Assembly: GCA_047967505.1 (NCBI GenBank)
Contig: CM106538.1
Direction: 5' to 3' (one strand)
DNA: 64,000 nucleotides
Source of the DNA: Dipteris shenzhenensis
Lineage: Eukaryota
In this document: positions 13,088 through 60,585 of the stretch, piece after piece
Position numbering within the stretch: the stretch's first letter is position 1
Layout: each line of letters begins with the position of its first letter
Made by a program: the position numbers and the translations under genes
Notes under the pieces: model-generated
The model's input: only the letters and a program-made list of their open reading frames with translations
Database searches by the model: none
Told to the model about the DNA's origin: nothing

Positions 13088-14649
13088 GATGATGCTCAAG
13101 CCGAAACAGAGCCGGAAACGATCTGTGCACAAACCCTAAAACCTGTGCTGCCGCTTCGATTGACGATCTCGAGCGCCGGCTCTTGAAAAGCCTGCCAGAA
13201 CCCTAATTCCTGCTGCCCTGATCCTTGACGTGGTTGGGCAGAGCAAAGAAGCAGGTCGATCTGGGAACAAAATGTGTTACTAAAGAGGAATTGGAAGGCG
13301 TCTTCTCTGCTGTCCCTTTCACCCACACACACAAACAAGATGTGCAAGCCTCTCGCTCTGTCTGCAAACAGATTCACAGCGAAATTCTCGCAAGTACGCA
13401 CAGATTAACAGAGATGCTTGCAGAATGCTGGCGCTACTCTCTTAGACACTGAAAAACGGAAGTGCACAAACAAGATTTAAGCCTGCACCTTGTAGAATAG
13501 GGGCAACCGACGATCTAGAGCGCGTGCAGCAAGGCGGTGGGGAAATCTTTAGTCTTGTGAAGGGAATGAAGAAGAGGCCGACGAGTCGAGTGGATGATGC
13601 CGGCTGCTCTCTCTAAATAAGAGTTTAGCATAACATGCAAACGTTTTGCCTTTCTCTAAAGAAGTTATTGGGCTTTCTCTAAGACCCCTTGGCTATCTAA
13701 GTACTTGCCAAGAGGACGAATAATCTTTGATGGTTTTTTGTAATTACTTTTTCCTAATAAAAATTTCTACTTTTTGCTTTCAACAATGTCTAAGTCCTTG
13801 CCTTAAGGTGTACTAGGTCAAGGCTACACTGGAAATGTTCAAAGAGACTTCCTCAAGAGCCAAGATAACCTTCAAAACATTATCAATCACTCCACCTTAG
13901 CCAAGGTCCATCCCCTACATATATTTATTTATTTATTTATTAGCTCCTTGCACTTTTTTCCCTTTAAACACAGATGTGCAAAGCGCAGGAGCCCCTTACA
14001 ATTTTGAAAAAACGTGTCTCTCTACTTATTTTCATCCAATACCTATACTCCTTTCTATTTTGAGTCTCTCTCTTTCTCTCGCTCTCCCTCTTTCCTCACC
14101 CATCAACTTGTCCCTCGATCCCCCCCCTCTCTCTCTCCCTCTCTTCCCAAATCAACTCGTCCCTCTAAGGGAAGTGCTAACGAGTACATTTATTATTTAT
14201 ATTCTCCTCTCTCTCTCTCTCTCTCTCTCAAATTACCTATCTCACATATCCCCAAAGAATGTGTAGAGCATTCATGGAACCTTATTAAAATAACATATCT
14301 ACTACACATTGTGCATTGATGTATGAGTCTTTGTTCATTCAAAGGTGCTCAATTCATGTCACCTAAACATGGCAAATTCACAAGCTAATTCACAATTGGG
14401 CATCGTATCATGCTCACACTTATGCATAGCTTCAATGTTCTCTCTCTCTCTCTCTCTCTCAAGTGTGATGGTAATTTTGCTCTAAATTCCTATAAAAGAT
14501 GCTATGGGATACAATATTAGATAACTCACATAACAAACTTTGAAATTATGCTAGGGGACAAGAATCTCTAAAAAAAGATATTATGAGTTGGTTGAATGAA
14601 AACTAAGTGTCCTACAAGCCATTTAGATACCGTCCACTAGATTCCACGA

Positions 14650-21458: not shown

Positions 21459-24372
21459 ATGTCTATGACTAGCAACCTCAAACTGGAGGCATCTGCTAAG
21501 CTAGACAACTCTAATTACGGCACATGGAAATACCAAATGGAGACCATTCTTTTACTTTAGGACAAATGGGAGTATGTCGATGGTTCTACACCTAGACCAT
21601 TGGACGATCCAGACAGCAATAGCTCTACTCTACCTGTTGTTACAATACTAGCAGCGGGATCTACAACGGGATCTCTAGCTACACCAAAAGTTTCTGCACC
21701 AATAGCAGATCCTGCCATTGACCGAGCACAGGCAGAATGGGACAAGAAAGACAAGTATGCATATCATCTGATCAAGCAGAATGTGCAAGATGACATGCTA
21801 GGACAACTCAACATAGTCAAGACATCCAAAGAAGCATGGGATATGTTCACAACTCTCTACGAGTTCAAGAACACTTCCAAGATTCTCACACTGAGAAATA
21901 AGATAAATGAGAGTTTTTGCAACAGTAGTGAAACGAGTCATGCTTATGTACTCAAAATCAAAGATTACAACAATTAACTCGCAACAATAGGAGAAACCAT
22001 GAATTCAATAGAAATGGTTCAAGTCATCCTAAATGGACTAGGAGAGGGATACGAGAATCTAGTCCAGAGTATTGCCATTCAATGATAAATTTTGACACTG
22101 GAAGGACTCCAGTCAGTTTTACTTAGTAAAGAACTCAGGACTTAGGCCATTCACGCATGCAAAGGTCATTCCAATGATCAAGCATTTACAGCTTTAGATA
22201 GAAGCTGAGGCAGAGGCTAAGGCTAAGGTAGATCATTCCCACGAAGTGGTCATCATCAGAAACAAAGTCAGCACCAACATCATCCTCAGCAATGTCAACA
22301 TCAACAAAGAGGAAATCATTCCAATTGAGGAAGATTCCAAGGATGAGGGAATGCATCCACCGTGTCAAACATTTAGTGCAACTATTGTCATAAGTTTGGA
22401 CACTATGAAAGAGATTACCACTCCAAGAAGAAGTACGACCAAGGCGGTCAATCCAGCAACAATCGAGGGAATTTTCGAGGAAGAGGAAATCATCGTGGTG
22501 GACATTCTAGTCACAGTCATTATGCAAATGGACCTGAGAACATGTTTCTTGCAAGCGAGGAAATGCAGAAGACTGATACAGTAGTGTATCTTGACACTGA
22601 TTGCAATTCAAAAGATGAATTTAGCTATCAAGTCGACCAAGCAGATCAGGATCCTTGGTACATTGATAGCAGCAATGCATCATCTCATATGACAAAATAT
22701 CAAGAATGGTTCACAGAGATGAAGCCATTAGAGGGTCAGAAGAATGTTATCTACACAGCAGATAATACATCGAATCAGTTCAAGGGAAAGGCATTGTCCC
22801 TACTATGAGCAATTCCACTGGTACGAAAGGATTGGTGAAAGATGTACTCTATGTTCTAAAGCTCAACAAGAACCTCTTATTAGTAGGTCAAATGATGGAA
22901 CACAACTATCGAGTCATCTTCGATTGAGATGAATGCACGATCAGAGACAAATCTAGAGGATATCAGCTAGAAGGAAAAGCAGTCAGGGAAGGATGCTTGT
23001 TCAAAATGCTAGCTTCGGTACTAGATTTGCATGCCATGTCAACACAACTGCAACAACAGATGCCACTATCCACAAAATGGCACAAGGGATATGGACATGT
23101 TAATTTCAAAATCTTGATAGAGCTCAAAAATCAGAATATGGCAATTAGACTTCCAAAGCTACAGTTTCTTCGAAAAGTTTGCGAAGCATGCTGCTTCGGC
23201 AAACAAAAGGGAACCAACTTTGGCAAAAGCATCTCTCGAGCACGAGGTATTCTTGATTTGATTCACACAGATGTATGGCATTATGCCCAGACCCGCAGCA
23301 TCAATGGTTCACTTTACTACTTGACTTCATATGGCAGATTACAAGATTGCAGCCACTCCCATGGAATAGAGTTTGAAACTTACAAAAGATTCAGAAAAGC
23401 CTACATTCAATGACAAGTACTATAGGTAGCTCATCGAATCTCTTATATATATGACTATCACACGGCCATATATTTGTTATCTAGTAAGTTCACTTGTGCA
23501 GTTTATGGCAAATCCAAAATAGTCTCATTGGAATGTAGCCAAAAGAGTCTTGAGATATATCAGAGGTACAAGATAGTTTGGGATAGAATACAGAGGAAGT
23601 CATCCAAGGTTGCATGGATATTGTGACAATGACTATGCCAGAGATCATGAGACCAGGAGATCGATATAGGGATATGCATTTTTCCTCAGTTAAGGTGCTA
23701 TATCATGGTTGTCAAACAAACTATCAACTGTTTCTTTGTCTTCAACTGAAGCAAAATATAGAGCACTCACTATAGGTGCATGTGAGGCTATATGGCTCAG
23801 AAGACTATTGTTAGAAACAGATTACTTTGATGAATCAAAACCAACAATAGTATAGTGTGATAATCAATGGCCAAGAATCCAATATATCACTCCACTAGGA
23901 CAAAGCACATTCATGTTAAAGAGCACTTCATTAGAAAAAGAGTGTTACTTGATAGCAAAGAGAATGTTGCAAACATCTTTACCAAACCACTAGGTAAAGA
24001 GCTTTTCGAGAAGCACCGACAAGCTCTTGGTTTGATGTAGAGGAAGGACATTCCCATTAAAGGGGTGTGATGGAATGTAATGCTCAATCCTTCTTTGATT
24101 CCCCAGAATCATCATCTTGAGGGAAGGCCTACTTCAAGATGTTGATCTTGAGGGAAGGTGTTGAGAGATCAGCTCAACATCATGTGATCATATGTGCATA
24201 GCATTAACACATATACAGTGCTATAAAGGAAAGGGTTAGATATCCTAACCCTAACCCTAAAAGGGTTTGTATATATTCTACATTTTCAACTAAATCTAGT
24301 GAATAGTTAGTCATTTGTGGTGTGCTCTCTAGCTGTGCCCTCTCTCCTCTTCTCCTCTCCCCTCTATTGTCA
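21459..24372 (+). mobile_element. Internally deleted, decayed Ty1/copia element with PPT and 214-bp 3' LTR
   Basis: gag (KLDNSNYGTWK; ORF 21600-21977), zinc knuckle CNYCHKFGH (~22378), protease WYIDS..SSHM, pre-integrase WH..YGH...CEAC and LDLIHTDVW. It then jumps to the end of RT and RNase H (GYCDNDYA, VSLSSTEA). PPT tgagggaagg 24149-24158; LTR TG...CA 24159-24372. Confidence 0.9.
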
Positions 24373-30093: not shown

Positions 30094-33000
30094 TGCAAGA
30101 GAGAAAAATAGATAGTATGGAGAATAAAAAATTTGATTACTATAAAACTAATACAATAGATGGTGCTACCTCCCAGCCGTGCACTCCTGTGAGAGAAGCT
30201 TTGATGGCATGCTGGAAACAGTAGAGGACGGAGGCTGGATGCTAAGGAATCAGGGTTGCTATAGCAAGTGATGATGATGGGCTTCATGGGCTTGCTCTTA
30301 TATAGCCACCAGTCATAGTCGGCTAGACCCAATTGGGTGACCGACCCAGTCCAGCCAAAACGACCTCGGTCGGCCACCGACCACATGATAGAACTGTGGC
30401 ACAAAATAGAGCAACTAACCTACGGTCTCCACCATCTAGGATCATCGGGGGCTCTAAATGAGCCCCACAACCTGAGAGTGCCTCGAGAAATGCTCCGTCT
30501 ACCCTTAGTGCAGTCAGTGATGGGATGCCTTCCCGCACTTGCATGTAGCCTAGTTGGCAGTGTGTGAACTCTATCTGAAGCTGTCCAGCCATCAGGCCAC
30601 ACATGGCTCCCATCTAGTGTCCAAAAACCAAGACCTACCAGATAACTGAGCTACTCAAATGCCTTCTCCTCATATGGGGGCTTACAAGTAGAGTTAGCTG
30701 GTTCCCGTGTAGTTACACGAGAGTGGAGCATTGATATCTAACACCCCCCCAATATGTCCACCCGCAAGTGAACTTACTTTTTCGGCCCAACGCCATGATG
30801 AGCTCGCGTACAAAGTGATATTGAATCTCAATGTGTTTTGTGCGAGCGTGGAACACAAGGTTCTTTGCAATCGCCATGCAACTCTGATTGTCACATGATA
30901 ACTGCGTAGGCATGTTCTGCACTACACCCATGTCCCCTAAAATCCTCCTCAACCACACTGCCTCACAAGAAGCAAAACATGTTGATTTGTACTCAGCCTC
31001 AGTAGAAGAAAGAGCAACTATAGGTTGCTTCTTGCTGACCCATGACACAGCTCCAGATCCAAGTGAGAAATAGTAACCTGTCACTGGTCTCCTACTGTCC
31101 ACGTCTCCTGCCCAATTCGAGTCACAGAATCTGGTCAAGATGTTGCCCTTGGTATAGATGATGCCATAATCAAGTGTGCCTTTGATGTATTTCAGCACCC
31201 GCATCCCTGCCCTCCAATGGTTCTCTCGGGGCTTATTAGAAAACCTGCTTAGCACACCAGTCACAAAACTGATGTCCGACCGTGTGTTGCACAAGTAAAT
31301 CAAATTGCCGACAAGCCTTCTATACTTTGCTTCGTCCACCAGTGGTGATGAATCCTCGTTTGAGAGCTTCACGTCAACCTCCATAGGGGTGCCAACTGTC
31401 TTGCACTTAGCCATGCCAAATGCCTTCAGTATCTCTCTAGCATACTTCGGCTATGAGATGAAGATCTGTTTTGGCTCTTGCCAAACTTCAATCCCCAAAC
31501 AGAAATGCATCAGTGTCATTTCAAACTCTCTTCCTAGCAAATGCTTTGTCTACGAGATCTTCTCTTCATGGTTCCATGTTATGACAAGGTTGTCCACATA
31601 AAGGACCATGATCATACACCTGCCTCCTTTGTAGTTATACAAATTTGCATCAGATGGGCTCCTCCTGAACCCATTTTGCAAAAAGTAGGCATCAATCCAC
31701 TGGTACCATGCTCGTTGGGCCTGTTTTAGCTCGTAAAGTGCTTTCTTTAGTTTATAGACTTTATCTTCTGAATCGGGGATCACAAAACCTGTAGGTTGTT
31801 CCACATATACCTCCTCCTTGAGATCTCCATTTAGAAAGCCGGATTTTACATCCATCTGAAACAGGGGCTAGCTTTCTCTTCTAGCATTTGAGTAGAAGAC
31901 AGTTTCTTTTCAAGTTCCTCCTGAAGAAGATGCACCACCATTTCTCTGCTCTTTAGAAATTAGAAGAGCAATCAACTCCTCAAAATAAGGAAAATTCTCA
32001 CAGATAGACGGAATTGTGCATAATCCTTTTGTAGACCATTCAAGGTCACAGAAACTAAATCATCATCTTCCACTGGTGACCCAATAGAAGCAAGTGCATC
32101 TGCAATCTTCTTCACCTTCATGTGGTAGTCATTGATGCTCATATTTTCTCTCTGCACATTATGCAACTCCTGCTTGAGCGCTGCATTTTCCTGGCTTGCA
32201 TATTTTTGCTATACATTTTTGTCGAAGTATCCCACACCTCCTTTGGTGTGCTTGCATCTTGAATATGCACAATCATAGAATCTAAAATACTGATAAACAG
32301 CCAGTACATAACTTTCCTAGCTCTCTCATGCCAGCCTTTAAATGCTTGCAACTCTTGTTGATTGGGAACATTAGGAATAACTGGTTCTTGTCCAGCTCTA
32401 GTAATGAACTCCCAATAGCCTTTTCCCTTAAGGAAATTCGTCATTCTAAACTTCCATGCTTGGACATTGTTCTTGTCAAGCTTTTCAGTGACTATCAGTG
32501 AAAGAGCATCAGATGCCATTACAGAACACTGCGAAATTATTTTGTCACTGCAAAAAACACAACTTCTACCTCACAAGGGCAAATCTGCAAAACTGACGAA
32601 AGTGGTATTTAACCATACAGTCACTTCCTAGTGACGATTTTGCATCAACAGGCAATAGGAATGATTTTGTCATTCCCAATATCTCTGTGCACAGGCATAC
32701 AATGCAATTTTTGTGGTAACTTTTCACCGACCTGCAGAACAGTGGTCACACAACAAAAACAGTGCACTTTTCTGAGTGCTTGCGAAAAACTTCCACCACC
32801 AAAATGGGCACCAAAATGGCCTCTCGCCACACTATGAAGGGCATCCCAATCTGAGAAGTGCACCTTTGCACTTTCTGGCTATGCTACTTGCCTCTGATTT
32901 GCTCCCAAACTCGAAAAAGGAAAGCAACACTGATCCTCTTACCAAGACACCGTGAACTTGGTTTGCTTTCTTGAGCTCCTTACCATGAATCGAGCTTTGA

Positions 33001-37471: not shown

Positions 37472-38375
37472 AAAATGTTGAATTAGTAATCATACCCAGG
37501 TTCTACCAAAATTTCCCCGGAAATCCTATCATCTTTTTGCATCCTATTTCCAACTTTCAAAACTACAAATCTTTATTTCCTCTAGCTTAAATGAATCCCT
37601 CATTAATCTTTTTAGAATCTATCACATTTTTGACAATATGGAATCCTTCACTTCCTATGATGGTACTGTGAGTCTCGCCACTCCCTCTACCGGCCTCATC
37701 ACCACTTCACTACTCCTACTAGCCTCACCACCCCTTCTACTACTCCCTCTACTATTGTGTCTCCCTCTACTTCCATAGCCCCATCACCATATATCCCTCC
37801 CTCTATCTCTTTCTCCATGCCAAGCCATATCATTGATGAAGAGTTGAATCCCAAACCTAAGCCTCAACAAAATACCCAAAGGAGTCTAGTCAACAATCCA
37901 CAACATGCCCAACAAAGAGAATAAATATGACCATAATGGTAGCCCCTCTCTATCCCATAGGAAGCCCTTAGTTTTATATTGAGATAGACCTTGCCATGGA
38001 ACTTCGTGAAACTCTAGTCACCCTAAGCTAATAGGAATGGCTCTATCTTCAAGGAATATCCCCTCAGATATAAAAACTTCCACATTCCTATTTCTTGTGT
38101 GGATAAGCCACACAAAACCAAAGTGGACTATCAAAGGTAGGGCAAAAAACCAAGACATGGAGAAAACTGCAGAAATAGGGATAGATAACAATTCAGACTA
38201 GAAGGTAGAGGCTCAAAAGAAACCTATTGTATAGTAAGAAAAGGAGAGAGTGACTTTTCCTTTGGCAACCAACAATACTTTTGAGGCTCTTATTGACAAA
38301 GAAACTAAGAAGTGGATTCAAGATGCACAAATGGAGGAAGCTGAAATCAAACCTAGATGGTTTAGAGAGTTTGAG

Positions 38376-38409
38376 CATTAGGGGAAAATTGGGGTCTCAA
38401 AAGGGCCTT
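38376..38409 (+). repeat. Left terminal inverted repeat
   Basis: cattagggga-aaattg-gggtctcaaaagggcctt; 10-bp and 18-bp blocks identical to the right TIR, 6-bp spacer. Confidence 0.92.
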
Positions 38410-38960
38410 AAAAGGAATGGATTAACCTCCTAGGTGGGAACCAAAAAATTCAAAATTCAAAATTTGAATTTTGAATTCCCTCCCTCATTCTCTCTCCTCC
38501 CTCCCTCGCTCCCTCCCCCTCATCCCTCCCCCTCCCTCACTCCCCCTCCTCACTCCCTCCTCCCCCTCCCTCCTCCTCCCCCTCCCTCTCTCCCTCCTCC
38601 CCCTCCCGTCTCCTCCTCTCCCCCTCCTCACTCCCTCCTCCCCCTTCCTCCTCCTCCCCCTCCCTCCCTCCCTCCTCCATGCCTGCTCCTTCTGCCCTCC
38701 CCTTCCCTCCCTCCCTCCATGCCTACTCCTCCTGCCCTTCCCCTCCCTTGCTCCTCCTCCCCCCTCCCTCCTACTCCTCCCTCCTCCTCCATGCCTACTC
38801 CTCCTCACCCTCCACACCTACTGGTCTGCCCCCATTTCCTCCTCTTCAACTACTGGTTCTCCCTCACCCTTCCCTCCTCCTCCTCGCCCTCCCTCTTCCT
38901 TCGTGCTGCTCCTTCAAGCCTACATCTCCACACCTTCTCCTTCTCTGCACTCCTTTAGTC

Positions 38961-41903
38961 ATGGCACCATTCAAGGACATCTCCAACAAGTACCAGGTCC
39001 ACTTAGAGTTGGAGGCTGAATATGCAAGCACACGTAGTCTAGGATCGAGGGGAGCTTCCAAAATCCGCAGTCTTTATTCGCAAGGAAAGAAGCATCTCAA
39101 CCTTTGGGTAGAAGGATCCTTGTATCCTTTAGATCCTGCCAACCAAAAGAGCCCTCCTTTCCATACAATGCATGAGCTAGTTCCGTTTTTTGGAAATGGA
39201 CATGCGAGGTTGCTTGGTTATTGCAATCGGTTAAACAATGCTTAGTCAATGGCTATGCAAGCAAGCGAGATGCACAGAGCCCAAGTAGAGATGTTAGCAC
39301 ATTTAGGAAATAGCACCATTGTTGTAATGCATAACTCTATGTAGGATCTTCAAAGGGAGAACCAGGATCTTCATGATAAAGCCAAAGCATTGGACTTGGA
39401 GCAACGTAAATTAGAAGAGTCACTCTATAAGCTAGCTAAGTCCAAAAAAGGCTTGAAAAGATCTATATACAATCAAGTACGATGAGCCATAGAGAAGGAA
39501 CGAGAGAAGGCAGAAGAACGAGTGCAAAAGATGAAAGAAACACCTTTGGGATTGAAGGAGAGGAAAAGAAGGTACTTACATAACATGGATGCATTGGCAC
39601 CCACTGGTGGTGCTAGAAAGAGGAGAGTCTAGGCTACAAGGTTGGTTATGAAATGTTCCAATGAGATTACACTCTTTTGTGCTACACTGTTTGTGACTAA
39701 GTTTTTATTGTGTTCTTCTTTAGGAACTTCATGGAAGATGTGATGGGAAGAATGGATGGGGATGATATTGACTATTCATATGCTCTAGCTAGTTTATTGA
39801 AGTCAATCGATGTCATTGAGATACTAAGGGACCCAAGACACAAGCGCCTATGTGTGCAAGTTGTTGAGGAGGTGATGAAGGACTTCAAGGATATTGTAGA
39901 TGCAAAGGAGATGCTTGTAGCTTGTGATACTGCCGGTGTAAGTCATGAAGCTTACACATCTATTTTTAAAATTTTCAAGTCTGCTATTTTGGGAAAGTAT
40001 AAGAAGTCTATAGTGCCCCTACCCACACCTTGGTCTGTGAGACGTGCATGGCGAGAAACAAACCAATGTGCAAGAGAAAAGCGTGGAGGGTAACATTGCG
40101 TAAGGGGCACAATGACTTGGAAGAGTAAAAAGAAATCTAGCTTGCAAACCTTTGAGATGAATGCTTTCAACAATGTCTACTTAGATGTTGAGAAACTACA
40201 ACAAGCAATGGTCTTCTATGGCATGAGAGAAGATGGTAAGAGGAAATCCATTATAGCATTGCACTTTACTTAGTTCATTTCCTATATCATGTTTATCCTA
40301 ATGGATTTTCTCTTTTGTTGTACAAATTGCAATGGAAAGCTCATATTTGTCATCAAAATGTATGAAGCTCAATTGGTGAAAGAACACAAGTTAGAGAGAG
40401 TCAGCATCTGCATTATGAATGAAGCCTTAGCCTTTGTTCAAGGGGACAAAGAAGTAGAGCAAGATTTATCAGTGCAATTAGATAAAGATATATGGTGGCT
40501 TGTAGCGTTTGAGACTTCAAAAGAGTGCCATGAGACATTGAAGTGGGTTCTAGATAGAAAATGAATCCCATCGACGATTCAAAGATAAGAGGAAGGGCAA
40601 ACATTGACAGTCGATGGCCATGGAACTTTTCAAGTTGAATGGCATCTTGCTGGTGATTTGAAAACCCTCAAGTGCTTGCATGGTTACGATACAGGGGCAA
40701 ATGCAATGAACACATGCCTTTATTGCATGTGTTCGCAATGTAAGCAAAAGGTTGGCTTACAATGGGAGAATGTCATTCTATCTTGTAGCCAAACGCAAGC
40801 TCCGAATCGTGACAAGAAGGATCCAAAGTGGGATCCCATCTTGCCCATCCCACTTGAGAGAGTACACATATGTACTTTACATGTAGAACTGTGCGTACTT
40901 GATAAGTTGTTGTATTTGCATCTTGTCTATGCTTGGAATTTAATTCTACAAGAAGTATCCACATGGTGCATTGCAGAAGCTGAGAAGTTGTTGTCAGAGA
41001 TGGGATTGCATAGAGGACATGTCAAACTTAAGGAGGATAAGAAATGTCTGGGGCAACATAGAATCTTCCTACAAAAGTGTCCATGGGTGGAGGGAAGGCA
41101 AGGAGATTCCTATCAAACCACAATCTCAACAAACATAAACATACATTGTCTCAAAGTAGTTTGGGTTGGGAATACTGGAAAGCATTGTGTGAATGCATGA
41201 CCAATAAGGCTTCTCATCCTCAAGTAGCAACTTTGAGAGCTAAAGTACAGACAAAGGTAGATGCATTGATAAAATTGCTTTGCTAGGTTCAAATCGATGA
41301 GATGTATTATGAAAGGTTCAGGCTGGCTGTGAAAGAGTTTATGTAATTAATGGTGAAAGCATGGGGGGAGTCACACATTACACATTACATGGTAATCTTG
41401 GCACCATTCTAATATTTAGCACTTGCTTTATAAACAATTTTTGTTGCTGATATGATTCTCATCATGTTTGTAGCATTCTCTATGCACATGGACCATGGTT
41501 TGTACAAAATTGGGGTCCCTTGTCAATTTGGAATACACAAGGCATGGAGAAGTTGCACTATAGAGCCAAGGCAGCCTACTTCAAGAACTCGAGGCATGGT
41601 GGTGGTGTCACTCGTAGCAATGCATTGCATGAGATGTTCGACTAGTTTTTTCGATGTTTACTAAGAAGGACTTTGGAGTCTGAAAAGGCAAAGGCATCAG
41701 AACTTGCAAAAGCAGTTCAAACTATATCAAAGAATAGAAGGCATAGTGTCTGGAAAGCATCCATAGGGAGTCGAGGAGTCACACTTGCAAAAGCAGTTCA
41801 AACTGTATCAAAGAATAGAAGACATAGTGCTTGGAAAGCATCCATAGGGAGTAGAGGAGTCACATGTTGGTTGCAAGCTAGAGTGAGAGAAGGGATCAGA
41901 TGA
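38961..41903 (+). pseudogene. RAG1/Transib-like DDE transposase with 3 introns, disrupted by stops and at least 2 frameshifts
   Basis: ATG 38961; introns 39641-39723, 40236-40325 (acceptor reads AA, not AG) and 41392-41473. Motifs in order: VIKM(Y)EAQ, ECHETL, LTVDGHGTFQV, AGDLK, CLYC, ICTLH, MGGGKARRFL, ITHYM|(H)ILYAH, GPLSIWNTQGMEK. Confidence 0.85.
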
Positions 41904-42262
41904 GTCCAACCACCAACAAAAGCTATGGTGTAATTGTATACAAATATGAAATAAATATATTGCTTATTTTGACCACAATTTGTGTACTTACTCTTTAATA
42001 TCTTGCTTATTTTGACCACAATTTTTGTACTTACATGACATTGGGGAAAGTGGGGACATGGTGAATAGGGGCGAGAGAAGGGAGAGGCATGGGGCGGGGC
42101 AAGGGGAGGGGTGGAGTGGTAGCAAGGGTGGGGGGAGGGGGGGATGGGGGGTATGGGGGAGGGCGATGGGGGCGGGGCAAGTAGGGGGAGGGCAGGGGGG
42201 GGAAGGGCAACGAGGGTGGGGGGGTTGGAGGGGTTAGTAGGGCGGGGGCAGGGGACATGATG

Positions 42263-42333
42263 AAACCCTAAATGTAATTAAAAGGGATGTCAAAACATGA
42301 TGGGCCCTTATAAAAAGCTTTTAAAAACCCTAA
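42263..42333 (+). promoter_or_regulatory. Putative promoter of the H3-like gene: telo-boxes, site II motif, TATA box
   Basis: AAACCCTAA at 42263-42271 and 42325-42333; TGGGCC 42301-42306; TATAAAAA 42309-42316; ATG 42347. Confidence 0.55.
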
Positions 42334-42346
42334 CTCTCATTATTCA

Positions 42347-43372
42347 ATGGCAAGAGTGAAGAACACTGCTAGACCCACTGGACATCGCCTCCACCCTTCC
42401 TCCTCTAGCTCCACCACCTCCATGGCATCTATGCACACAAACCTATTCGGGTTCGATGGCACCTCCCTCGACTCTCATGAGCTCTCCCCCAACTCCCCCA
42501 AGTCTCGTGAGCCCACTCCCTAGTCTCCTGAGCCTTCTCCTCCTCCCAAGTCCCGTGAGCCCACTCCCCAGACCCAAGAGCATGAGCCTTCCCCTCAGCC
42601 TTCTCCCCAGCCTTCCCCTCAGCCTTCCCCTCAACCTCAGCCTTAGCATGACCCTCAGCCTTCCCCTTGGCCTCAGCCTCAGCCTAACCCTTAGCCTTCC
42701 CCTCAACCTTCCCCTGAGCCTTTCTCTAGGCCTTCCCCTCCCCATGAGATCCCTCTCTCGATCGAACAAAATGTATTCGATAACCTCTCGGATATAGAGA
42801 GGCTTCCTAAGGGTCAACAGGCTGCCATGAAGAGCACCATCTTCCCTCTCCCAGAGATACAACCCATGGCAGAGATGACCCTTGTGCCCATGAGGAGGGT
42901 AAAGCAGACTCCGAGGAAGCCCCATCCCAAAGAAGGCCAAAGCTCCAGACATTAGCGAGAGGAGGACTCAAACGAGGACCAACGTAGACAAGAGCAGCGA
43001 AAGAAGTTCAAGGCAGACAAGAGGCCGTGGGAAGGTGTTCAGGTACTTGTAAGGCCCCCACCAAGAGTCAAGAAGCCATACTAAGTAAAACTAGGAGTGC
43101 GGGTGATCAGGCAAATGCAGAAGACCATCGACAACTTGATCCCGCGTGCTCCCTTCCAACGTGTGGTATGGGAGATCAGACAGGGATACAAGGACAACAT
43201 GCACTTCAGCATAGGAGCTATGGGGGTGCTCCAGGAGGCTACAGAGCAAGTGACCATCGCTCTCTTTGAGGACGCCAACTTGTGTGCCATCCATGCAAAG
43301 CGTGTCACGGTCATGGACAAGGACATGGCTCTGGCGAAGCGGCTATGGAGTGACCCAAGTTTGAATCCCTAG
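42347..43372 (+). pseudogene. Histone H3-like protein with a long Pro/Ser/Gln-rich N-terminal tail (341 codons plus stop, 5 in-frame stops)
   Basis: One reading frame from MARVKNTARPTG (42347) through PSPQ repeats, MRRVKQTPRK (42890) and VKKPY to the H3 fold [21 protein letters not shown]...LQEATE...[28 protein letters not shown]. Stops at 42521, 42644, 42692, 42953 and 43082 are all TAG or TAA. Confidence 0.9.
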
Positions 43373-43565
43373 ATTCTCTTGCAACCCACTCTTAGGACTT
43401 AGACCACCCCCTGCCCTTGAAGGCACTATCTTATATCTAAAACCCAAGGGCCTATTTTTTAAAATAAAATATATCAACATTCTCTACACTATCGCATTGT
43501 TGTATATTTTCCATTTCAATGCTTGCAATAAATGATCATTTTAAGTTAAGTTTTGAATTCTGTTC

Positions 43566-43736
43566 AATCCTGAAGGAATTTCACCATCGCGCAAAAGGGA
43601 AAAGTGTCTGGCACATCGCCAGGACCCCAGAAAGCCCAAAACTTGCCATGGTGTGAATTTGGGCATTCTGGACTTTGCCCTGGCGAGGTTTCGGACACTT
43701 TTACCTTCTGTGCGATGGTGAAATTTCTTCAGGATT
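43566..43736. repeat. 171-bp imperfect palindrome (hairpin)
   Basis: Left arm aatcctgaaggaatttcaccatcgcgcaaaagggaaaagtgtc...; reverse complement of right arm aatcctgaagaaatttcaccatcgcacagaaggtaaaagtgtc...; inner ccagaa(a/t)gcccaaa pair; centre ccatgg. Confidence 0.9.
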
Positions 43737-43965
43737 TCACAAAAATGAACTCTTGATACCCAGAATTGGTGAAAATGATACTAAATTGGCTAGAAATCTA
43801 TTAAATTAACACAATTAAAATGATGGAGAAAATATATCATCGACTTAAACAAAATACAATGGAATTCATGACGAGCAATGAGAACTTAAAACAAATAATA
43901 AAGACATGTAGTCATGTATCCATTGAAATATCCATTTAGATATATGTTTATATATACAAAAGGCC

Positions 43966-45434
43966 TCACAGGCTATCTTTCTTCTTGGCTAGTTCGAGTA
44001 CATTGAGAATAGGGGTCTTTGAATCCCCTAGTGGATTCCTAGATATAAATCTAGCCACAACAGCACTAACATCCTCCTCTCCTACTACCAAAGATAGCCG
44101 TTGCCGTCAATGCCCTGCCATGAATGTTCGATCTAAAGGCATTGATAGCAACCAGGTGGTGTACCAAAATGACTTTGTCGACATTCCGAGTAATGTTGAA
44201 GTATCCAATAGCACGCGATAATGCCTTGCACTTCAGCAGCTTCAAAGGACCTCGAGGAGAAAATTTGCTATGAAAGACCACGATATGCTCTACGACTTTG
44301 CCAAGGTAATGGGCCAAAGAATGATCTCGCCCAAATGTGCTGTGAACATTACCCTATCGAGATGAGAATTCATCAAGCTCGAACACATCCTGCAACAATT
44401 CAACAAACATTAGAAGACCGACAAAACAAATTATACTGAAACAACATCAAAATAAAAAATATTGTTCGAACTTACCACTACAGCGTCATCGGCTTCTATC
44501 CCTTCGTCATTTGCAATGTTGAAGGAACCAGGTGCTATGTGATGTTCCATTTGGGAGGTGGACGCTTTCTCCTGACTTGTGTTGGAGGTGGAAGCTTCTG
44601 CATGAGAGGGTTGTGCATCGTATACGGACATGTCTACATCCCTCATTGAAACCAGCATTGTCAAGAGAAAGTCTTTCATTGTCTAGTCTTTGATACCTAA
44701 AACCCTAGGATCTTTGACACTTGTGTCAACATCAAACCTCGATAGGACTCTGAGTGCCTCATCCTCTCGTAGTCCAAAAAGAATCTCTATGTCATGGAGG
44801 AATACGTACTTTTCTCCATCGATGACGAGGGGAAACAAGGACCATAATTTTGAGTTTGGGTCAACGGTCTCTGATGCAGATTCTTGCTCTACTGGGGGCT
44901 CTTGAAGCAGGCTCAATGCTTGAGCTACTTCCATCTCCTCTATTGGATCATCAAGAATCTCTTCCATGTAGATTTCCGAGTCTAGGGACGACCATATCAG
45001 TAGTTCTGATAGAGGGGGTGCTAGACGATGAGGTTTCTTCCTCTAAATTTCATCTCCCATGAAAGGAATTTGGTGCCTGTATTTCTTATGATCCTTGCGT
45101 CTAGGATGTCTTGAACTTCGACTGTCCTAAACCCTTCGTATGTAAGGTTGTCACAAAAGCGGGCCAAGCGCTTTACAAACTTGGGTTCCTCTACGAACAG
45201 ATACTTTATGTAATCTATGGGAACCCATCTCTTTAAAGTGTGGTCAAGTGTATAGGCAAAATTTGCGAAATTATCTTACATGTAAAGGATGAGATCTGAA
45301 AAGTCATCCTTGGCCTGCATATATGTGCTTAGGACATCTAAACTCCTATCAAACACTAAAAATAGCTCTTCCTCATGATTTGCAAATGCAGTTTGTGAGA
45401 TGAAGTCATGGAATGTAGTTCTAGCTGAATCCAT
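43966..45434 (-). pseudogene. Unknown protein gene inside the transposon (one intron, stops and frameshifts)
   Basis: ATG 45434 (MDSARTTFHDFISQ...); TATA-like run at ~45540. ORFs 44683-44967, 44431-44679 and 44066-44317 are linked in frame by a stop and a GT-AG intron at 44475-44390. Confidence 0.6.
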
Positions 45435-45680
45435 GGCAAATAGCAGTTGATGGAGGGAGTAACTTTTGAGGATGGGAGTTTCTATGGCTCTCTAAATGTG
45501 AAAGTGAGAATGTGATGTAAAAAGGGCTCTTACCCCTTAATATATATAAAAACCCTAAAAATTAAAATTAATCATAAAATCCCCAAATTTTTTGAAAAAC
45601 ATTTACCATGAACTGAAAGGAGAAAACATTAAAAGAAATAACATTTTAATTTAATTGTCCATCATCTTTTGAATCAATAA

Positions 45681-46993
45681 CTAGGATTTGATAGACAAAA
45701 AATTAAATGCTGCACTAGTAAACACATTGTTAGCAATCTTCAAAGTTGCAGGAGGAATGAAATTGGCACTATGCATGCACTTCTCCACATGGTGGCTGAT
45801 CTTACCACCATTTAAGGTAAAGTAGAAGAACTCTGACATGCTGTCCTCCATGACCAATAGGGGTTCTCGCACATCCCCTAGAGTCCATTGCAATGTGACA
45901 TTCACATTCTTGACATCTCCTTTTTCAGCATGAATAGACAAACTTACCCCCATATTGTCTTCATCATTAGAGTCTAGGGGAAGCCACCGGCCATTTGTTT
46001 TCTTCCAGTTCCTATACTGAAAAGCTATATACAACATTTCGCATGTATCTAATAACCACATTGTCTTTACATGCATGACATTGAAACACATCACCCTTTT
46101 GGTCACCTGACCTGGTTTCCCAATTCATCCCAAGTAAATCTTCAAGAGCATTTTCATCTACATGCTTGCAGGACCACATAGTTTTTGTTCTATGCATATG
46201 TATATTCTGAAATAAAGAAGCAAAAATGTGCAGAGGCATAAACCAAGATAACCTTGCCCATTTGGATCCAAATGTAAACTTCATGGCCATGCCCACATCC
46301 TTTGCAATCTTGTCCTTGTATGATTGCAATGTCCTCGAGTCCACATTGCTGCAATCCATGTCTTGAAGTTGTGGTAGTGCAATGGTTTACAGACATCCAT
46401 AGCTTGATGATGTCGTTGGAGTGATGTATGTTGCATTATATCAATACACATTCTTCATTCACAAGGAGGCCAACTTCTCCCCGGCATGCATTTGCTCACC
46501 TAAATCCTCATGAATCGCAGTGAACTTGCCTATGAATGATTCAACTAGTTCCCACTCCTCGAGGTCCAAAGGGAAAAAATTTGCCACCATGAATAAGAGC
46601 TCTTAGAAACCAAACACAAAATTTCCAAATGGACGCATTACACTTATAGGTGAAAAAGATACATAGATAGAAAGGCTCACAGTGTGATGGTATCCTAGAT
46701 TGATTGAATGATGGAGGAAGCTGCATATCTTTTCCCATGTAAACATGTTGCACTTTTGCGAGCCATCCTTTCTTCCCAAACTTGAACTTCAAGATGCACC
46801 CCTTCCACTCATGCAAGATGTCACCTCTCTTGCACTTGGGAATCTTATGTGGACCTTTGGCCGATCCTTTCATCACTATCCAGTCATTTAAGTTGTAGGT
46901 GCAAGGGATCTAATCATCCAATGCATTTTTGGTGTTGTGGAAGACACAAGAGGTCACAGCATTGCATGGTCTTGTAGCCTTTCTCCTCACCAT
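45681..46993 (-). pseudogene. Probable BAH-domain protein inside the transposon
   Basis: ATG 46993; YNLNDWIVMK...EWKGCILKF...AKVQHVYMGKDM, intron from 46680 (acceptor not clean), then FPLDLEEWELVESFIGKFTAI...NVY*YNATY. This follows the BAH motif order and runs in frame into ORF 46012-46359. 3' end uncertain. Confidence 0.65.
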
Positions 46994-47679
46994 GCTTGCA
47001 GCAGTTGCAACAACAAGAACGGGACTCCTACACAAGGCAGTGCAGCTCCAATAGAGGCACAAAAGAGGGAGAAGGAGAGGGACAAAGTAGTAGCAATAGA
47101 GGGAGAAGTAGAGGGATAGAGCAGCAACAACAGAGGCATAAGAGAGGGAGAAGGAGAGGGACAGGGCAACAACAACAGAGGCACAGGAGAGGGAGAAGGA
47201 GAGGGGTAGTAGAGCAGCTCCAACAGAGGTACAAGAGAGGGAGAGGGGAGAGAGAGAGAGAGAGGAGCTGGAGCAAGCAGGCTAGAGTAGGAGGGAGCAG
47301 AGAAAGAGGGGGAAGAGGGAAAATGCGTAGGATTTGGTTTAAATTTGAGTGATTTGGTAGGCTGGACCAGAACAGTGGGCGGCAGAGGCCCTAGAAAGAG
47401 GGAGGGGAGAAGAAAAATTTGCCACAAGGGCCATACCATCCCCTTGAAGGTAGTTTTGGGCTCATGTGGGGGAGGTGCACCTGGTAGGAGTGTCAAAAAT
47501 GGGTTGAGGGGGGGGGGATGGTTTGGGTGGTCCCTAGTGTAAGGGGAGCAACCAATAGGGGCTCTCTGCAGGCATGCCCACCCTCCACCTCAGCATACCA
47601 TTGCACCACACCTTCTAGCACTCTCATTGATACACCTCAAATCACTCTCTAATCCCTTAAAATTAGGAAACACTAATTG

Positions 47680-47710
47680 AAGGCCCTTTTGAGACCCTTC
47701 TCCCCTAATG
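47680..47710 (-). repeat. Right terminal inverted repeat
   Basis: Reverse complement cattagggga-gaa-gggtctcaaaagggcctt; same two blocks as the left TIR, 3-bp spacer. Confidence 0.92.
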
Positions 47711-50700
47711 GAGGATGTAAATCAAGTAGATGCCAGTATGAGTGAATTAGAGTTAGGAGACTCAGAGGAAGAACTTCCTTTGGCCCAAAAACTGAGTAAT
47801 CCTATAGGACCTCCTGCCAAACCTCAAGCCACAACTCTGAATAAGAGAAGGATTTCCAAGTAAAGGGTTAGAGTGCCCCACCCAAAAGCCCAACACCCAA
47901 GGCTAAAAAGGGGAAGAGTAAAATAAACCATTCACTTTTCTCACAATGTTTGTGGATTAACTGACTCTTGGAGGAGTCAGGAATTAGCCAAGTGGCTGAG
48001 AGATAGTTCTCTGTCTCCTACATTTCTTATCTTACAAGAGGTGAAAGTAACAAATGTCACCCTGGATAATAGGTTAAAAAAGGTTGACATCATAAGAATT
48101 TGGCATTTCACAAGTCATGATGAAGGAAGGGGTGGCACTGCAATTGGGATATTGTCTCATGACAAGGACTGTGTCATCAGGTGCAGGCAGGACCCAAACC
48201 ACAAATGGCTTGCTTTAGAATGCAGAATGAAAATTTTTTATTTCACAGTTGTCTCAGTTTATGGTCCAATAGGCTCTATGGAAAGAAGAATCACTTGGGA
48301 TTTAATGCTGAATCTAGGAAGTGACTGTATTATTATTGGGACTTCAACATGGTTGAGAATATCAAAGACAGATGGATGCAGAAGGGATCAGTACTTAGGG
48401 GTTCTAAACAACAAATATAGGAAGATCTCAAAGAAAATTTGCAAGTGGTATACATCGGGACTCCCAGCATCTACACTTGGAGCAATAGACAGGTAAGTAA
48501 TTTGAGGAGAGAAGCCAGGCTAGATAGGGTGTATATTTCTCAATCTCTAATTGACCAAGCTCTAGAAGTCAAACAATCCACCTTTTCATCCCTCACCTTA
48601 TCAGACCACAAGCCAGTGTTAGCTTGTATTGATTTGGGGTGTGGGAAGAAAGGAGACTCTTGCTTTAAGGCCGATCCTTCCCTGTTTAAGCTTCAGACAG
48701 TTCAAAGACAACAAATTATAGAGAGTTGGCACTTGTCTTTTGTAGTAGCTGACTCCTTGTGTCAGGGTTGGAAGGATGCTATTGAAAGGGTCCAAACAAT
48801 CTTAAAGGAAGCCAAAAAAAATAGAGTAGCCATTAGAGCAAGAAGAATGGACAAGCTTAAGAAGAATATTGAAGGTCTTGAACAAAGAGCTAGAAGTAAT
48901 GATGTCAATACCCAACATCAATTATTGGTCAAAAGAAAAGAGGTCAGAGTACAAGAACAAATCAAGCTACATAATGCCAAGGTCTACTTTAGGGAATGGT
49001 GGGTAGGCAAGATAGACAATCCAACTAAGGAGAATTTCAAAAGGATTAGAAAAAAGAGGAATCATGACAAAATCCCTTGGTTGCAAAAGGAGGATGGGGA
49101 ATTGGTCAAATCAGAAATAGAAAATATGGAGATCATAGTCACTCACTTCAAAAACCTTTTAAGCACAGTGGAGTTAATAGACAACAAGGTCTTGGAGGCC
49201 AAAAATAGGTGCCATGTAGCCAAAAAATCCTATGTATCTAACCTAGACAAAAATCAGTTGGAAATTGACCTATCCCTTCAAGAACTTAAAGAGGAGGTGT
49301 TTGCAATGACTGATGGCAAAACACCTAGGGAAGATGGGCTACCTGTTGAATTCTACAAATTCTTTTGGGACATTGTTGGCCCCTCCTTACTGGCTGTTTG
49401 GAGGGAGAGTGTTAAACAGGGCCTACTCCCAAAGCATTTAAATGGAGGGGTAATTAAACTTATACCAAAGGAAGGGGACAGGACAGTCTTAAAATATTGG
49501 AGGCCCCTCACTATACTAAACTGTTCCTATAAGATATATGCTAAAGAAATTGCTTTGAGACTAAGACACAAGATGGACAAGTGGATTTTGGAGGAACATA
49601 AAGGATTCATCAAGAACATGCATCTATTAGAGGCAATCATCAAATTATGGGAAGGGTGCACTCATGTTGAAGAAAGAAATTAAGAGATCTGTCTTATTAA
49701 AATGGACTTTGATAAGGCATATGATAGGCTGAATTGGGGCCTTCTGCTACAGTCACTTAACAGCTTGGGATTGGGGAAGAAATTTACCTCCTATGTAGCT
49801 CTGCTAATATCAAATGCCTCTACAAAGGTGTGTGTGAATGGTGATATGTCTCAAAGCTTCATGTTGAGAAGGTCCATTATTTGCTATAGCTGTTGATGCC
49901 TTGGGATGGTTGATAAAAGAACTGGTGATTGCAGTAGAAATCAATGGTATAGAACTCCCCTCTAGAAAGCAACTGGTATACCAGCAAATTGCCAATGATA
50001 CTACCCTAACAATTAGAAACACAAATGTAGACATACAAAGAGCTATGGAATGTATGGATATATTCTGTAATGCATCTGGGTCAAAAATAAATCACTTCGA
50101 AATAGGTTATGCATTATTATTTGGTGACAACCTAAACCTTTTAGAATAGCTTGGATGCAAGAAGGTTCCCCATGGACAGATATTCAAGCTATTAGTTATC
50201 CCTATCAAATTCAATGTTAGGATGAAAGATAGATGGGAGTTCCTAGAAAAGTTCAAAAAGAAAATAGATAGTATCAGGGGATTGCATACATCAAAGCCCT
50301 AACTAATGGAATTTAGCATTTCATGTGATAGACTATCTTCTATACGATGGCAAGGGATAACCTTGAAGTATTGTTAGCCTTAAACAAGGCCAAGGCTTAC
50401 CTACCTCTTCTCTTCCCTTTGATCTCCATTGCCTTGACATCCTTCTCTTTCCTTACTTTGCCCTTTCATCCTCGTTTACCTATTTCATTGTAGTCTCTTT
50501 GCCTAATTTTCTTTATCCATCCATGGAATACCATTATGGGGTCTGCTACCTTTGTGAACATTCTCTTTAGCATCATCATGCCACCCACGCTCGCTGTCTT
50601 CCTCAAATTTGGGTGTGTGCCCATTTCATTCAGGTAGGCCTCATGAATGATATATATAATTCACCTTGTTTGGAATATTACAATTTTTACCATTAAGAAA

Positions 50701-58146: not shown

Positions 58147-59694
58147 TTAGAACCAAGAGGAGAGCGCATTTGTATCGTCCTCCAAATCCATAATCGCAAC
58201 GTAATCCTCTTCCTTGAAGAGATCTGCAACATCCGCTAGCTCCACCACACTCTCTTGCGGCAGCCCTCCAAGATCAAAGAAGCTTAAGCTTCCGAATTCG
58301 ATGTCGAAATCGTCTGGCATCAATTCGGAATTGAGTTCCATGGTTTCTTGTTGCGTCTCCATTAATGGAGCGATTGCATCGTCACAAAGTTGTGCAATCC
58401 CAGGTTGAAACACATTGCCGGAGATAGAGAGAGAATCTGACCGCTGGTCTAATAGCCAATCCAAGGAAGAAGGTGGGTCTCTTTCCATGGAATCTGAGCC
58501 TTCGCAGGGTGCAGAAGAGGCTTCTAGGAAAAGGCACCTTCGCTCTGGGCATGAGGACACTTCTTTAGAGGTTGCACAATCCAGAAACTCAAGGGAGCTT
58601 GTAAGATCGAGACTGCTGGAAAGAGAGCAAGCTCCAGGTGATCCAGGGGATCCGGAGGTCAAGTGATTGATCAAAACAGAAGAAGGTGAAGAGACAGACA
58701 GAATTTCTTTGGGCTCGAAATACTGCGGCACTTCGAAGAAGCTCATGGGCGCACCACTTGATTCGCAGCAATCTACTAAGCTTAGCTTCGATGTGGAATC
58801 TTTATAGCCATGATCTGATTCACAGCAATCGATGGACTTTAGCTTCGACGAGGAAGCTTTGATTGCTTCACTCGAATGACCAACATCTTCAACTTCACAG
58901 TAGCTTTCAAGTGACGGCGCAGTCTTTCTGTTTAAAACCTTTTGAAACTTCCCCCGACTGCGATCTTGAAACAGGGCAGAAAAATTAGTAAGAGCTTGAG
59001 GGCCTCTAATTCTCTTGGCTGCTTTGTCATAGGCACGCGCAGCTTCTTCTGCTGTATCATAGGTACCCAGCCACAATCGGACACCCTTTGAGGGATCTCT
59101 GATTTCGGCAGCCCATTTTCCCCACGGCCTCTGCCTCACACCCCGAAATTTCTGAGCTCTCTGTCGTTCTTGAGAGCTCCTCACACTTGTAGGAGGAGGC
59201 GGCAAAGACTTCCTAGCTACCTTGCCCGGTACTGGGCTGCCTCTCACAGTCCTAGCTTCTTTCTTTGTGTACAATTTGTTACTTTTCTTCCACAGAGGTG
59301 CACTTTTAGTCAGCCCAACAGAGTTCCTCTGGAAGTCACTGACGTGTTGGTCCGAATGTTCAGCTTCCTCTTTCAGATTACTCTCAGCTGCAGCGTCAAT
59401 ATCGTCTCCGATGCTGGGAGAATAAAAATCGGGATCAATGTAAATGTCCTGAATTTGTCTTTTGATATGAACGTTGCAGGACCCGACTTCTTCATCGCTG
59501 GAGGATTCCGTAGCATCTGGATCAGTGCATATCACTCGTACCCTCTTCGGCCGAACCCTGGATCTTGAAGGACTTAACTCATCCTCGGAATCCGAGAAGA
59601 AATATTTCTCAGCTATGCGTTGAGTCCTCTTGAGCGCGCCTGATGTTTTCGCATAAGGTCGTGCTGATTTGGGACACTTTTGAGGCCCTGGCAT
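58147..59694 (-). CDS. CRF: AP2/ERF transcription factor of the cytokinin response factor (CRF) type, intronless, 515 aa
   Basis: First ATG 59694 (MPGPQK); CRF domain [21 protein letters not shown]2 domain [20 protein letters not shown]...[17 protein letters not shown]...ALTNF; SPSSVL motif. Confidence 0.93.
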
Positions 59695-60585
59695 CTTTGG
59701 AGAAGTGGAAAAAACCACCAAGGTTCCACAATATTTCGAAAACGCCGAGGGCAATGGTGAGGCTTTCTTTTCAAGACGGTTTGCACGCTGCAAGGCGTAA
59801 ACTAGCTAGCCTGAAGTAGTGCACTAGTGGTATCTCCTTGCAGGTCATAGGAAGCAATACCCAGGAGTGACAGTGAGAACGCAAGAACGGAAGGGAAGGA
59901 CGTATACGTACTGCAGCTACGGAGGGGAATGACAATTTGCAGATCCGAGGTTTGCCAAAAAGGGTACCAGAAGGCAGCTACGCAGGGAATGACAACTTGC
60001 AGATCAGAGAATGGAAAAAGGGTACCAGAAGGCAGACATTTGCAACATGAGGGCAATAGAGGGTGAAAGCTCATGCGAGCGGGGGAAGCAAGCAAAAACT
60101 GCTGTCGCGGAGGCCTTAATTTCCTCGTGCGACTACACTGATCAGAAATCAGAGACAACTGCAAGGGCGGGTGCCGCCGGGGAGGGAAGGGAAGTTCCAA
60201 TATATGAAATGCAAGAAGGGGTGGGGGGCGTTGCGGGACGATTGGGGAGCTCGTCACGAGCGGGCAGCTGCACGTTGAGGCGAAGGAAAGGGCGCGTGTG
60301 TGTATGGGACGAGGCGGGGCAAAGAGAGACGAGGAAGGTACAAAAACAGATCAGTGGTGTCCGTTTAATCAAGAGCAAGAGAGGGTGCGTGCGTGCAGGG
60401 AGGCAACGAAAGCAAGCATGATGATGGGAAGGTGAGATAGGCGGAGAGGAGGCAGCGGCGGCAGCAACTGCAAGGAAAAGAAACGTGGAGATGGAGGGGA
60501 GATGATGGGAGAGGAAGAAGAAGATGGAAAGACGAAGAGGAGGAGGAGGAGAAGGGAGGGTATGGCGATGGCTAGCTATGGCGAT

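Follow-up and report, generated by a model that had tools for sequence, protein, structure and literature searches.

Unequal inverted repeats of a decayed CATTAGG-ended plant transposon reflect a right-arm deletion carried by part of its family

Within a 64,000-nucleotide stretch of contig CM106538.1 from Dipteris shenzhenensis (GCA_047967505.1; hereafter the window), positions 38376–47710 hold a 9,335-bp element with inverted repeats at both tips and GAG directly outside each of them. We read this element, with a probability of roughly 0.8, as one decayed copy of a multi-copy plant cut-and-paste transposon family of the CMCT group, with a transposase of RAG1/Transib architecture, a histone H3-like gene, a third gene, CATTAGG ends and an asymmetry between its arms that comes from a right-arm deletion in part of the family. 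The original prediction had likened this asymmetry to that of recombination signal sequences, and here our main result is negative: the difference in spacing is a deletion variant rather than a move in the direction of RSS-like 12/23 signals, and it should therefore not be used as evidence of how V(D)J signals arose. The value of the element lies in the lineage to which it belongs, which spans plants and a charophyte, has a transposase of RAG1/Transib fold that Pfam models do not recognise, keeps an invariant heptamer at seven ends and carries a recurrent H3-like gene.

Results

From the outside inwards, the left end reads GAG (38373–38375), the terminal box CATTAGGGGA (38376–38385), the 6-nt interval AAATTG (38386–38391) and the inner block GGGTCTCAAAAGGGCCTT (38392–38409), the last three on the plus strand. 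The right end, taken as the reverse complement from 47710, begins with the same terminal box (47701–47710), placed by its sequence, continues with the 3-nt interval GAA (47698–47700) and reaches the same 18-mer (47680–47697), placed by its sequence and by match statistics; these features lie on the minus strand, and GAG at 47711–47713 on the plus strand adjoins the right tip. The original prediction had located the left GAG and the left arm only, the partner arm being at 47680–47710, and its description of identical 10-bp and 18-bp blocks, 6 bp apart on the left and 3 bp on the right, agrees with the sequence exactly. The two arms are identical at 28 of 28 block positions, despite the badly decayed genes of the window copy.

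At up to three mismatches, the 18-mer has two matches in the 64-kb window, one per strand, against an expected 0.04, and two matches were not reached in any of 100 shuffles. Taken by itself, the 10-mer shows no significant excess when one mismatch is allowed (5 matches vs. 5.1 expected); its exact copies in the window are two, both at the termini of the element. The same pair of terminal inverted repeats (TIRs) was recovered by a repeat search and by self-BLAST of the window. Self-BLAST found neither a second copy of the element nor a miniature inverted-repeat transposable element derived from it in the window, and a TIR pattern search of viral_contigs gave 0 matches.

The GAG copies at 38373–38375 and 47711–47713 are identical and form a putative 3-bp target-site duplication (TSD). 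When flank repeats of 2 to 5 bp were compared, the 3-bp repeat alone was identical on both sides; the 5-bp flanks, TTGAG and GAGGA, are unlike while 3 bp match. The predicted 3-bp TSD is plausible for this single copy, and it rests on the one insertion in the window because the right ends of relatives were not recovered.

Seven public sequencing runs contained 0.06–0.11 of the sampled words. Contigs from four of them, X1–X4 (four studies under one organism label), were aligned to 37876–48210 at 85% likeness or more, yielding 533, 520, 427 and 426 contigs, respectively. Most are 85–95% alike to the window element; in X1, 26 contigs are at 99% or above, 107 at 95–99%, 228 at 90–95% and 172 under 90%. 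Since hundreds of contigs per run match, mostly at 85–95% likeness, the window element belongs to a family of many diverged copies. Three X4 contigs stop following the window precisely ahead of 38376, where their sequence becomes different, and this confirms the left boundary. The outermost bins, 37876–38220 and 47881–48210, had no cover in any of the four runs, which is not evidence of anything.

The contigs also account for the unequal arms. In all four runs there are contigs with TCA put in behind 47696 on the plus strand (2, 2, 1 and 1 contigs of X1–X4), with depth shares of 244/401, 267/538, 40/145 and 17/59. Read on the strand of the element, these three additional bases lengthen the right interval from 3 to 6 nt and make it end in TG like that of the left arm. 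Elsewhere the longer arm retains the bases peculiar to the right arm, and three of its positions do not agree with the left arm; it is thus a variant of the right end rather than a misplaced left end. The difference between 6 and 3 nt is thus a 3-bp deletion in the right arm that is common to part of the family only, and it has no 12/23-like role. The presence of the short right arm in many contigs suggests that the deletion is tolerated. For the original prediction, symmetric TIRs or CACTA ends in other copies would have meant decay specific to this copy: symmetric TIRs do occur in other copies, in 4/4 runs, while the short form is shared and so is not private to the window copy, and the ends are CATTAGG, not CACTA, at all seven ends aligned below. 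As a side observation, one X1 contig and two X3 contigs agree with the element over its first 42 nt, after which they diverge (window 38417); these may be non-autonomous derivatives, or a subfamily sharing the terminus only.

We then looked at the ends of relatives. A profile of ten relatives returned 26 transposase loci in metagenome contigs, 12 of which include the N-terminus of the open reading frame (ORF), with 149–840 nt upstream. A left end was found in five of these 12 (L004, L008, L016, L019 and L020), 367–666 nt upstream of the ORF match and always on the ORF strand, compared with 612 nt in the window. Each consists of CATTAGG, a variable stretch, GGGCC(T/C)T and then GTAAG(A/G)A, and a pattern filter over all 26 loci on either strand returned these five left-end sites only. 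The remaining seven N-terminus loci have 149–636 nt upstream, more than 500 nt in L018 only.

CATTAGG, the first 7 nt of the window's terminal box, is invariant in all seven aligned ends (the window's two and the five left ends of relatives) and is therefore a lineage trait, not a decayed CACTA; the predicted CATTAG(G) ends of a real cut-and-paste element are present at both tips. The inner box, to which the GGGCCTT part of the 18-mer corresponds, has invariant G, C, C and T columns across the same seven ends. Its distance from the tip, measured to the end of the box, is 33–35 nt in the relatives and 34 nt in both the left arm of the window and the longer right form, against 31 nt for the right arm of the window. 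The 3-nt right interval is the derived state, because the left ends of relatives and the longer right form both place the inner box 33–35 nt from the tip. What the lineage conserves is thus the terminal heptamer and the inner box, with a less conserved stretch of ~20 nt between them, and the blocks of 10 and 18 nt are simply where the two arms of the window copy coincide. The interval is not free either, since the TG that closes it on the left of the window recurs in four of the five relatives' left ends (L019 is ambiguous).

No right end, sought as CCTAATG plus the inner box on the opposite strand, was found in any of the 26 loci. Two candidates were rejected: a site near 5008 in L016 (15/21 identical to its left end, by eye) lies inside a 627-aa ORF and has flanks without a repeat, and an inverted pair in L008 (372–414 and 5032–5074, 72%) is low-complexity sequence. 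An inverted copy of the terminal motif, CCTAAT, is seen ~50 nt inside the end at the window's right end (~47650–47660, reverse complement), in L019 (~215–225) and in L020 (~190–200); it may be a third conserved box, or pair with the terminus in a stem. Close behind the left TIR, the subterminal region (38447–38937, plus strand) begins with a 31-nt AT-rich palindrome of AAAATTC-type repeats (38447–38477) and continues with CT-rich low-complexity sequence. The subterminal low-complexity sequence is CT-rich on the left and GA-rich on the right, in inverted orientation (pairs I4, I6, I7 and I13).

The transposase pseudogene spans 38988–41885 on the plus strand, as traced by tblastn with P0001, P0002, P0004 and P0005, uncharacterised proteins of 565–898 aa. 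It has 12 in-frame stops over 904 aligned codons, at least one of them probably inside an intron, and a frame change near 41047. The first catalytic aspartate is replaced in the window copy, with TAT (Y) at 40361–40363 where relatives show the D of KLDE; the other core motifs are the second D (40655–40657), CLYC (40715–40726) and E (41547–41549). Judged from its sequence, the window transposase gene is dead. Most contig depth has an extra A behind 41041, the site of the frame change, so some of these defects are the window copy's own. In the bin 41326–41670, contig depth is far above that of its neighbours in three of the four runs (4676, 2711 and 1617; 189 in X3), and some short piece within it is common to a much more abundant repeat or other sequence.

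Fragments make up most of the transposase family, which numbers 824 representatives at E ≤ 1e-3, falling to 438 at 1e-10 and to 122 at 1e-30. The lineage occurs in streptophytes, its named members belonging to a charophyte, Klebsormidium nitens, and to a fern, Adiantum nelumboides, and the transposases of the five relatives with a left end are ~31–45% identical to the query relative. The alignment shows the motifs KLDE, AGDLKTLK, CxYC, HxCTLH, HILxVH and QGME(R/K), in the order D, D, C(2)C, H(4)H, E. The relatives' KLDE, AGDLKTLK and QGME(R/K) supply a DDE triad, the catalytic residues being assigned by motif order. HILKVH or HILLVH is present in P0002 and L002; C(2)C is missing in 3 of 12 aligned relatives, and CLYC is found in the window and most relatives.

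An AlphaFold model of the relative P0002 has a core, residues 370–770, with predicted local distance difference test (pLDDT) scores mostly between 70 and 90. Using Foldseek, the 34 matches listed of 47 at E ≤ 0.001 are all RAG1, BbRAGL or HzTransib, with a best E of 9.5e-10; the next family, P element, follows at E 0.2. The same three proteins fill ranks 1–35 in VIA-align (Z 9.4–14.7, 331–443 residues aligned), led by RAG1 (Z 14.7, 398 aligned, RMSD 5.2), with HzTransib at Z 13.8 (375 of 480 residues) and BbRAGL at Z 13.2; the first match beyond them is unrelated, at Z 7.4. The RAG1-like enzyme of the original prediction is thus right at the level of the modelled fold. Language-model look-alikes are mixed, comprising Plavaka, Transposase_21 and RAG1 domain clusters at 0.93–0.96; the Transposase_21 cluster at 0.94 (Atlas) is a lead only.

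A histone H3-like pseudogene, interrupted by two in-frame stops, follows downstream of the transposase and shares its strand (42866–43372; Pfam PF00125, E 2.8e-25). By tblastx, an H3-like gene stands in this same position and orientation in 3 of the 26 loci: L002 (1675–2229), L001 (2129–2707) and L020 (4263–4436). The L002 gene is uninterrupted (184 aa, PF00125 E 7.3e-34), with a longer loop-1 region than the window's; that of L001 has a single in-frame stop. In an Adiantum gene model, P0243, a fragment of the transposase is fused with a histone domain. The H3-like gene seems to be an accessory gene that recurs in the lineage, not a one-off capture. Some copies have lost it, since one X1 contig is without 43098–43368. 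We found no paper joining histone H3, transposase, transposable element and Klebsormidium.

A third gene, ORF3, is read inward from the right end (44135–46993, minus strand) and is present in pieces, recognised from ORFs and tblastx, with its start MVRRK at 46993. By tblastx it is common to 3 of the 26 loci (L004, L016 and L017), in either orientation, and the 627-aa ORF of L016 is an intact version. This intact version has no Pfam or Atlas match, and a word-indexed search with one 147-aa piece returned no homologue. The N-termini of the two accessory proteins read MRRVKQTPRK... (H3-like, 42890, plus strand) and MVRRKATRP... (third protein, 46993, minus strand); third-protein starts in relatives read MVRRKITPRR... 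and MVRVKKTPTR... (L001 3059; L002 about 2730). By eye, without statistics, both proteins resemble the histone H3 N-terminal tail at their starts.

The element has inserted into an open frame (38239–38375 and 47711–48496), which is in phase on either side of it. An ORF ~200 bp downstream of the element has a weak endonuclease/exonuclease/phosphatase match (E 0.0013, below the Pfam cut-off). Because the frame is in phase on both sides and this weak match lies downstream, the target was probably an old long interspersed nuclear element. Elsewhere the window holds a Sec61/SecY gene with plug domain (11950–13135, minus strand), a gene for an AP2-domain protein (58150–59805, minus strand) and copia-type gag and pre-integrase remnants (21561–23410, plus strand, and 32142–32570, minus strand), and on the strength of these it reads as plant nuclear DNA.

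Discussion

If we are right about the element, its lineage adds a green-lineage branch to the CMCT group and could help root CACTA-type against Transib/RAG-type enzymes. It also allows a test of how evolution changes TIR boxes and TSD length around a catalytic core that stays fixed.

Several points weigh against our reading. The TSD length and the right-end architecture are seen in the window copy only, no relative's right end having been recovered, and a 3-bp TSD known from one insertion would match by chance 1 time in 64. The short right arm holds a sizeable share of depth and hence has propagated, so a subfamily could tolerate it or even make use of it; Logan contigs and contig depth, moreover, do not equal copy counts. 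On the protein side, we found no link to a named superfamily at the level of sequence: Pfam yielded no transposase family, either in the window ORFs and 10 relatives (both at E ≤ 0.1) or in 14 relatives (E ≤ 1). When Protein Data Bank (PDB) sequences were searched with a profile of 10 relatives, no RAG1 or Transib came up at E ≤ 10, and the two matches obtained were weak and unrelated (E 0.19 and 0.72). The P0002 model is mediocre overall, with a mean pLDDT of 59.3 from a 10-sequence alignment, and the PDB library is without a CMC/CACTA-type structure, so that the fold match cannot separate CMC-like from Transib-like.

How might such an element move? The data above show its anatomy, its many copies, the conserved termini, the fold and the polymorphic deletion. 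From the fold, the order of motifs and the general behaviour of RAG and Transib we infer a sequence of steps, in which the chemistry, the part of the protein that meets each box and a family-wide 3-bp TSD are all inferred. A transposase multimer would bind the inner box through a sequence-specific domain, and the CA terminus would be placed in the DDE active site. Cleavage would fall at the junction between the flank and CATTAGG, probably as a nick followed by a hairpin on the flank; nick-and-hairpin cleavage is the mode of RAG and Transib. The 3'-OH ends would then be joined 3 bp apart in the target, giving the GAG duplication. On such a complex, the 3-bp right-arm deletion would shift the inner box by about a quarter turn.

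Our next question was where the lineage belongs among known systems. In the available part of PMC12730594, the CMCT clade is defined by C(2)C and H(3-4)H motifs, mostly 5'-CA..TG-3' termini and TSDs of 2–5 bp, and includes EnSpm/CACTA, Mirage, Chapaev, Transib, Plavaka and ESTA, as well as Lanisha. Our element, taken together with its relatives, shows all four features: C(2)C, H(4)H, CA..TG termini (CATTAGG...CCTAATG) and, from one insertion, a TSD of 3 bp. The idea of a lineage between CMC and Transib, which the original prediction drew from the mixed signature and the RAG1-like enzyme, is not new. Nor is the mixed signature surprising in itself, because TSD length and termini vary even inside Transib: the part of a 2026 preprint available to us describes Transib relatives with TSDs of 5, 3 or 2 bp (TA) and variable termini around a conserved core.

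The lineage is probably the Lanisha superfamily or close kin of it. Lanisha was proposed from a moss in 2021 as a cut-and-paste superfamily (PMC8245031, in the part available) and appears in the available text of PMC12730594, from 2025, as 'showing similarity to EnSpm'. As far as these partial sources go, our lineage shares with it a cut-and-paste habit in the green lineage, CMCT placement and abundance in the host; the likeness is drawn from host kingdom and CMCT placement. Membership in Lanisha proper is about an even bet. A quite different placement, which we think unlikely though worth keeping in view, is that the elements lie outside Lanisha and form a previously undescribed lineage, sister to Transib/RAG and CMC and spread across the streptophytes, marked by the RAG1 fold, CATTAGG ends, a ~20-nt stretch and inner box, an H3-like gene of its own and the H3-tail-like starts of both accessory proteins. 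On that view the two starts would suggest that the element manipulates or mimics chromatin marks of the host.

Less probable still is that the element is a divergent member of the Transib superfamily itself, a plant Transib with a 3-bp TSD. The transposase does share with Transib, RAG1 and ProtoRAG (BbRAGL) its overall fold over ~400 residues (Z 13–15) and the motif order D, D, C(2)C, H(4)H, E, the match to HzTransib being as good as that to RAG1, and the ends likewise combine a conserved terminal heptamer with an inner box beyond a variable stretch. The 3-bp and TA TSDs and variable termini of the Transib relatives in the preprint, so far as its available part goes, would also allow it. However, the profile of 10 relatives matched neither RAG1 nor Transib chains at E ≤ 10, none of the RAG1 domains of Pfam was reported for the relatives scanned, the TSD is 3 bp and not 5 bp, there is no RAG2-like gene, and extra genes (H3-like and ORF3) are present. 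Transib/RAG-type heptamers are CACAGTG or CACAATG, whereas the heptamer here is CATTAGG, not of CAC type. The fold search itself cannot exclude CMC, as the library searched contains no CMC structure. Because it lacks a 5-bp TSD, a CAC heptamer and profile similarity, the element is not a canonical Transib. Literature on Transib or RAG1 in fern, moss or alga gave nothing relevant among the matches listed.

We give very little credence to the unequal intervals (6 nt left, 3 nt right) as a functional asymmetry analogous to the 12/23 rule, in which the ends would be told apart by spacer length. The arms are indeed kept identical in every block position while the genes have decayed badly, the short arm's share of the depth is considerable, and the ends of relatives do show a heptamer, a variable stretch and an inner box. 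Against this, the right arms with 6/6 spacing occur in every run, the inner boxes of the five relatives fit 34 and not 31 nt, and the recurrent TG means that the interval is not a neutral spacer. Spacers of 12 and 23 differ by about one helical turn, while a 3-nt difference is about a quarter of one. In this respect too the lineage differs from Transib, RAG1 and ProtoRAG, as no 12/23-type spacer classes were seen. The RSS-like asymmetry of the original prediction is accordingly replaced by a right-arm deletion variant.

It is equally improbable that this is an ordinary CACTA/EnSpm element, an old copy in which mutation turned CACTAG ends into CATTAG: the two hexamers are one transition apart, the look-alikes include Plavaka and Transposase_21 clusters, and the element shares with EnSpm/CACTA a 3-bp TSD, a 5'-CA terminus, C(2)C and H(4)H motifs, several genes and repeat-rich (CT/GA-rich) subterminal regions, but CATTAGG stands at both window ends and at the left ends of five relatives with transposases as diverged as ~31–45% identity, and neither PF02992 (Transposase_21) nor PF18759 (Plavaka) was matched in the window ORFs or the relatives scanned (E 0.1 to 1). 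Since the termini differ from CACTA(C/G) and Transposase_21 is unmatched, the element is not a canonical CACTA, and it has an H3-like gene as a further difference.

A final comparison concerns this H3-like gene. In fungi of the genus Pyrenophora, the available parts of PMC6710886 and PMC3538342 likewise describe a DNA transposon that carries a histone H3-like gene. There, so far as those parts tell, it is a matter of one fungal element and one gene amplification, whereas here the gene recurs in distant plant and algal members of a transposon lineage.

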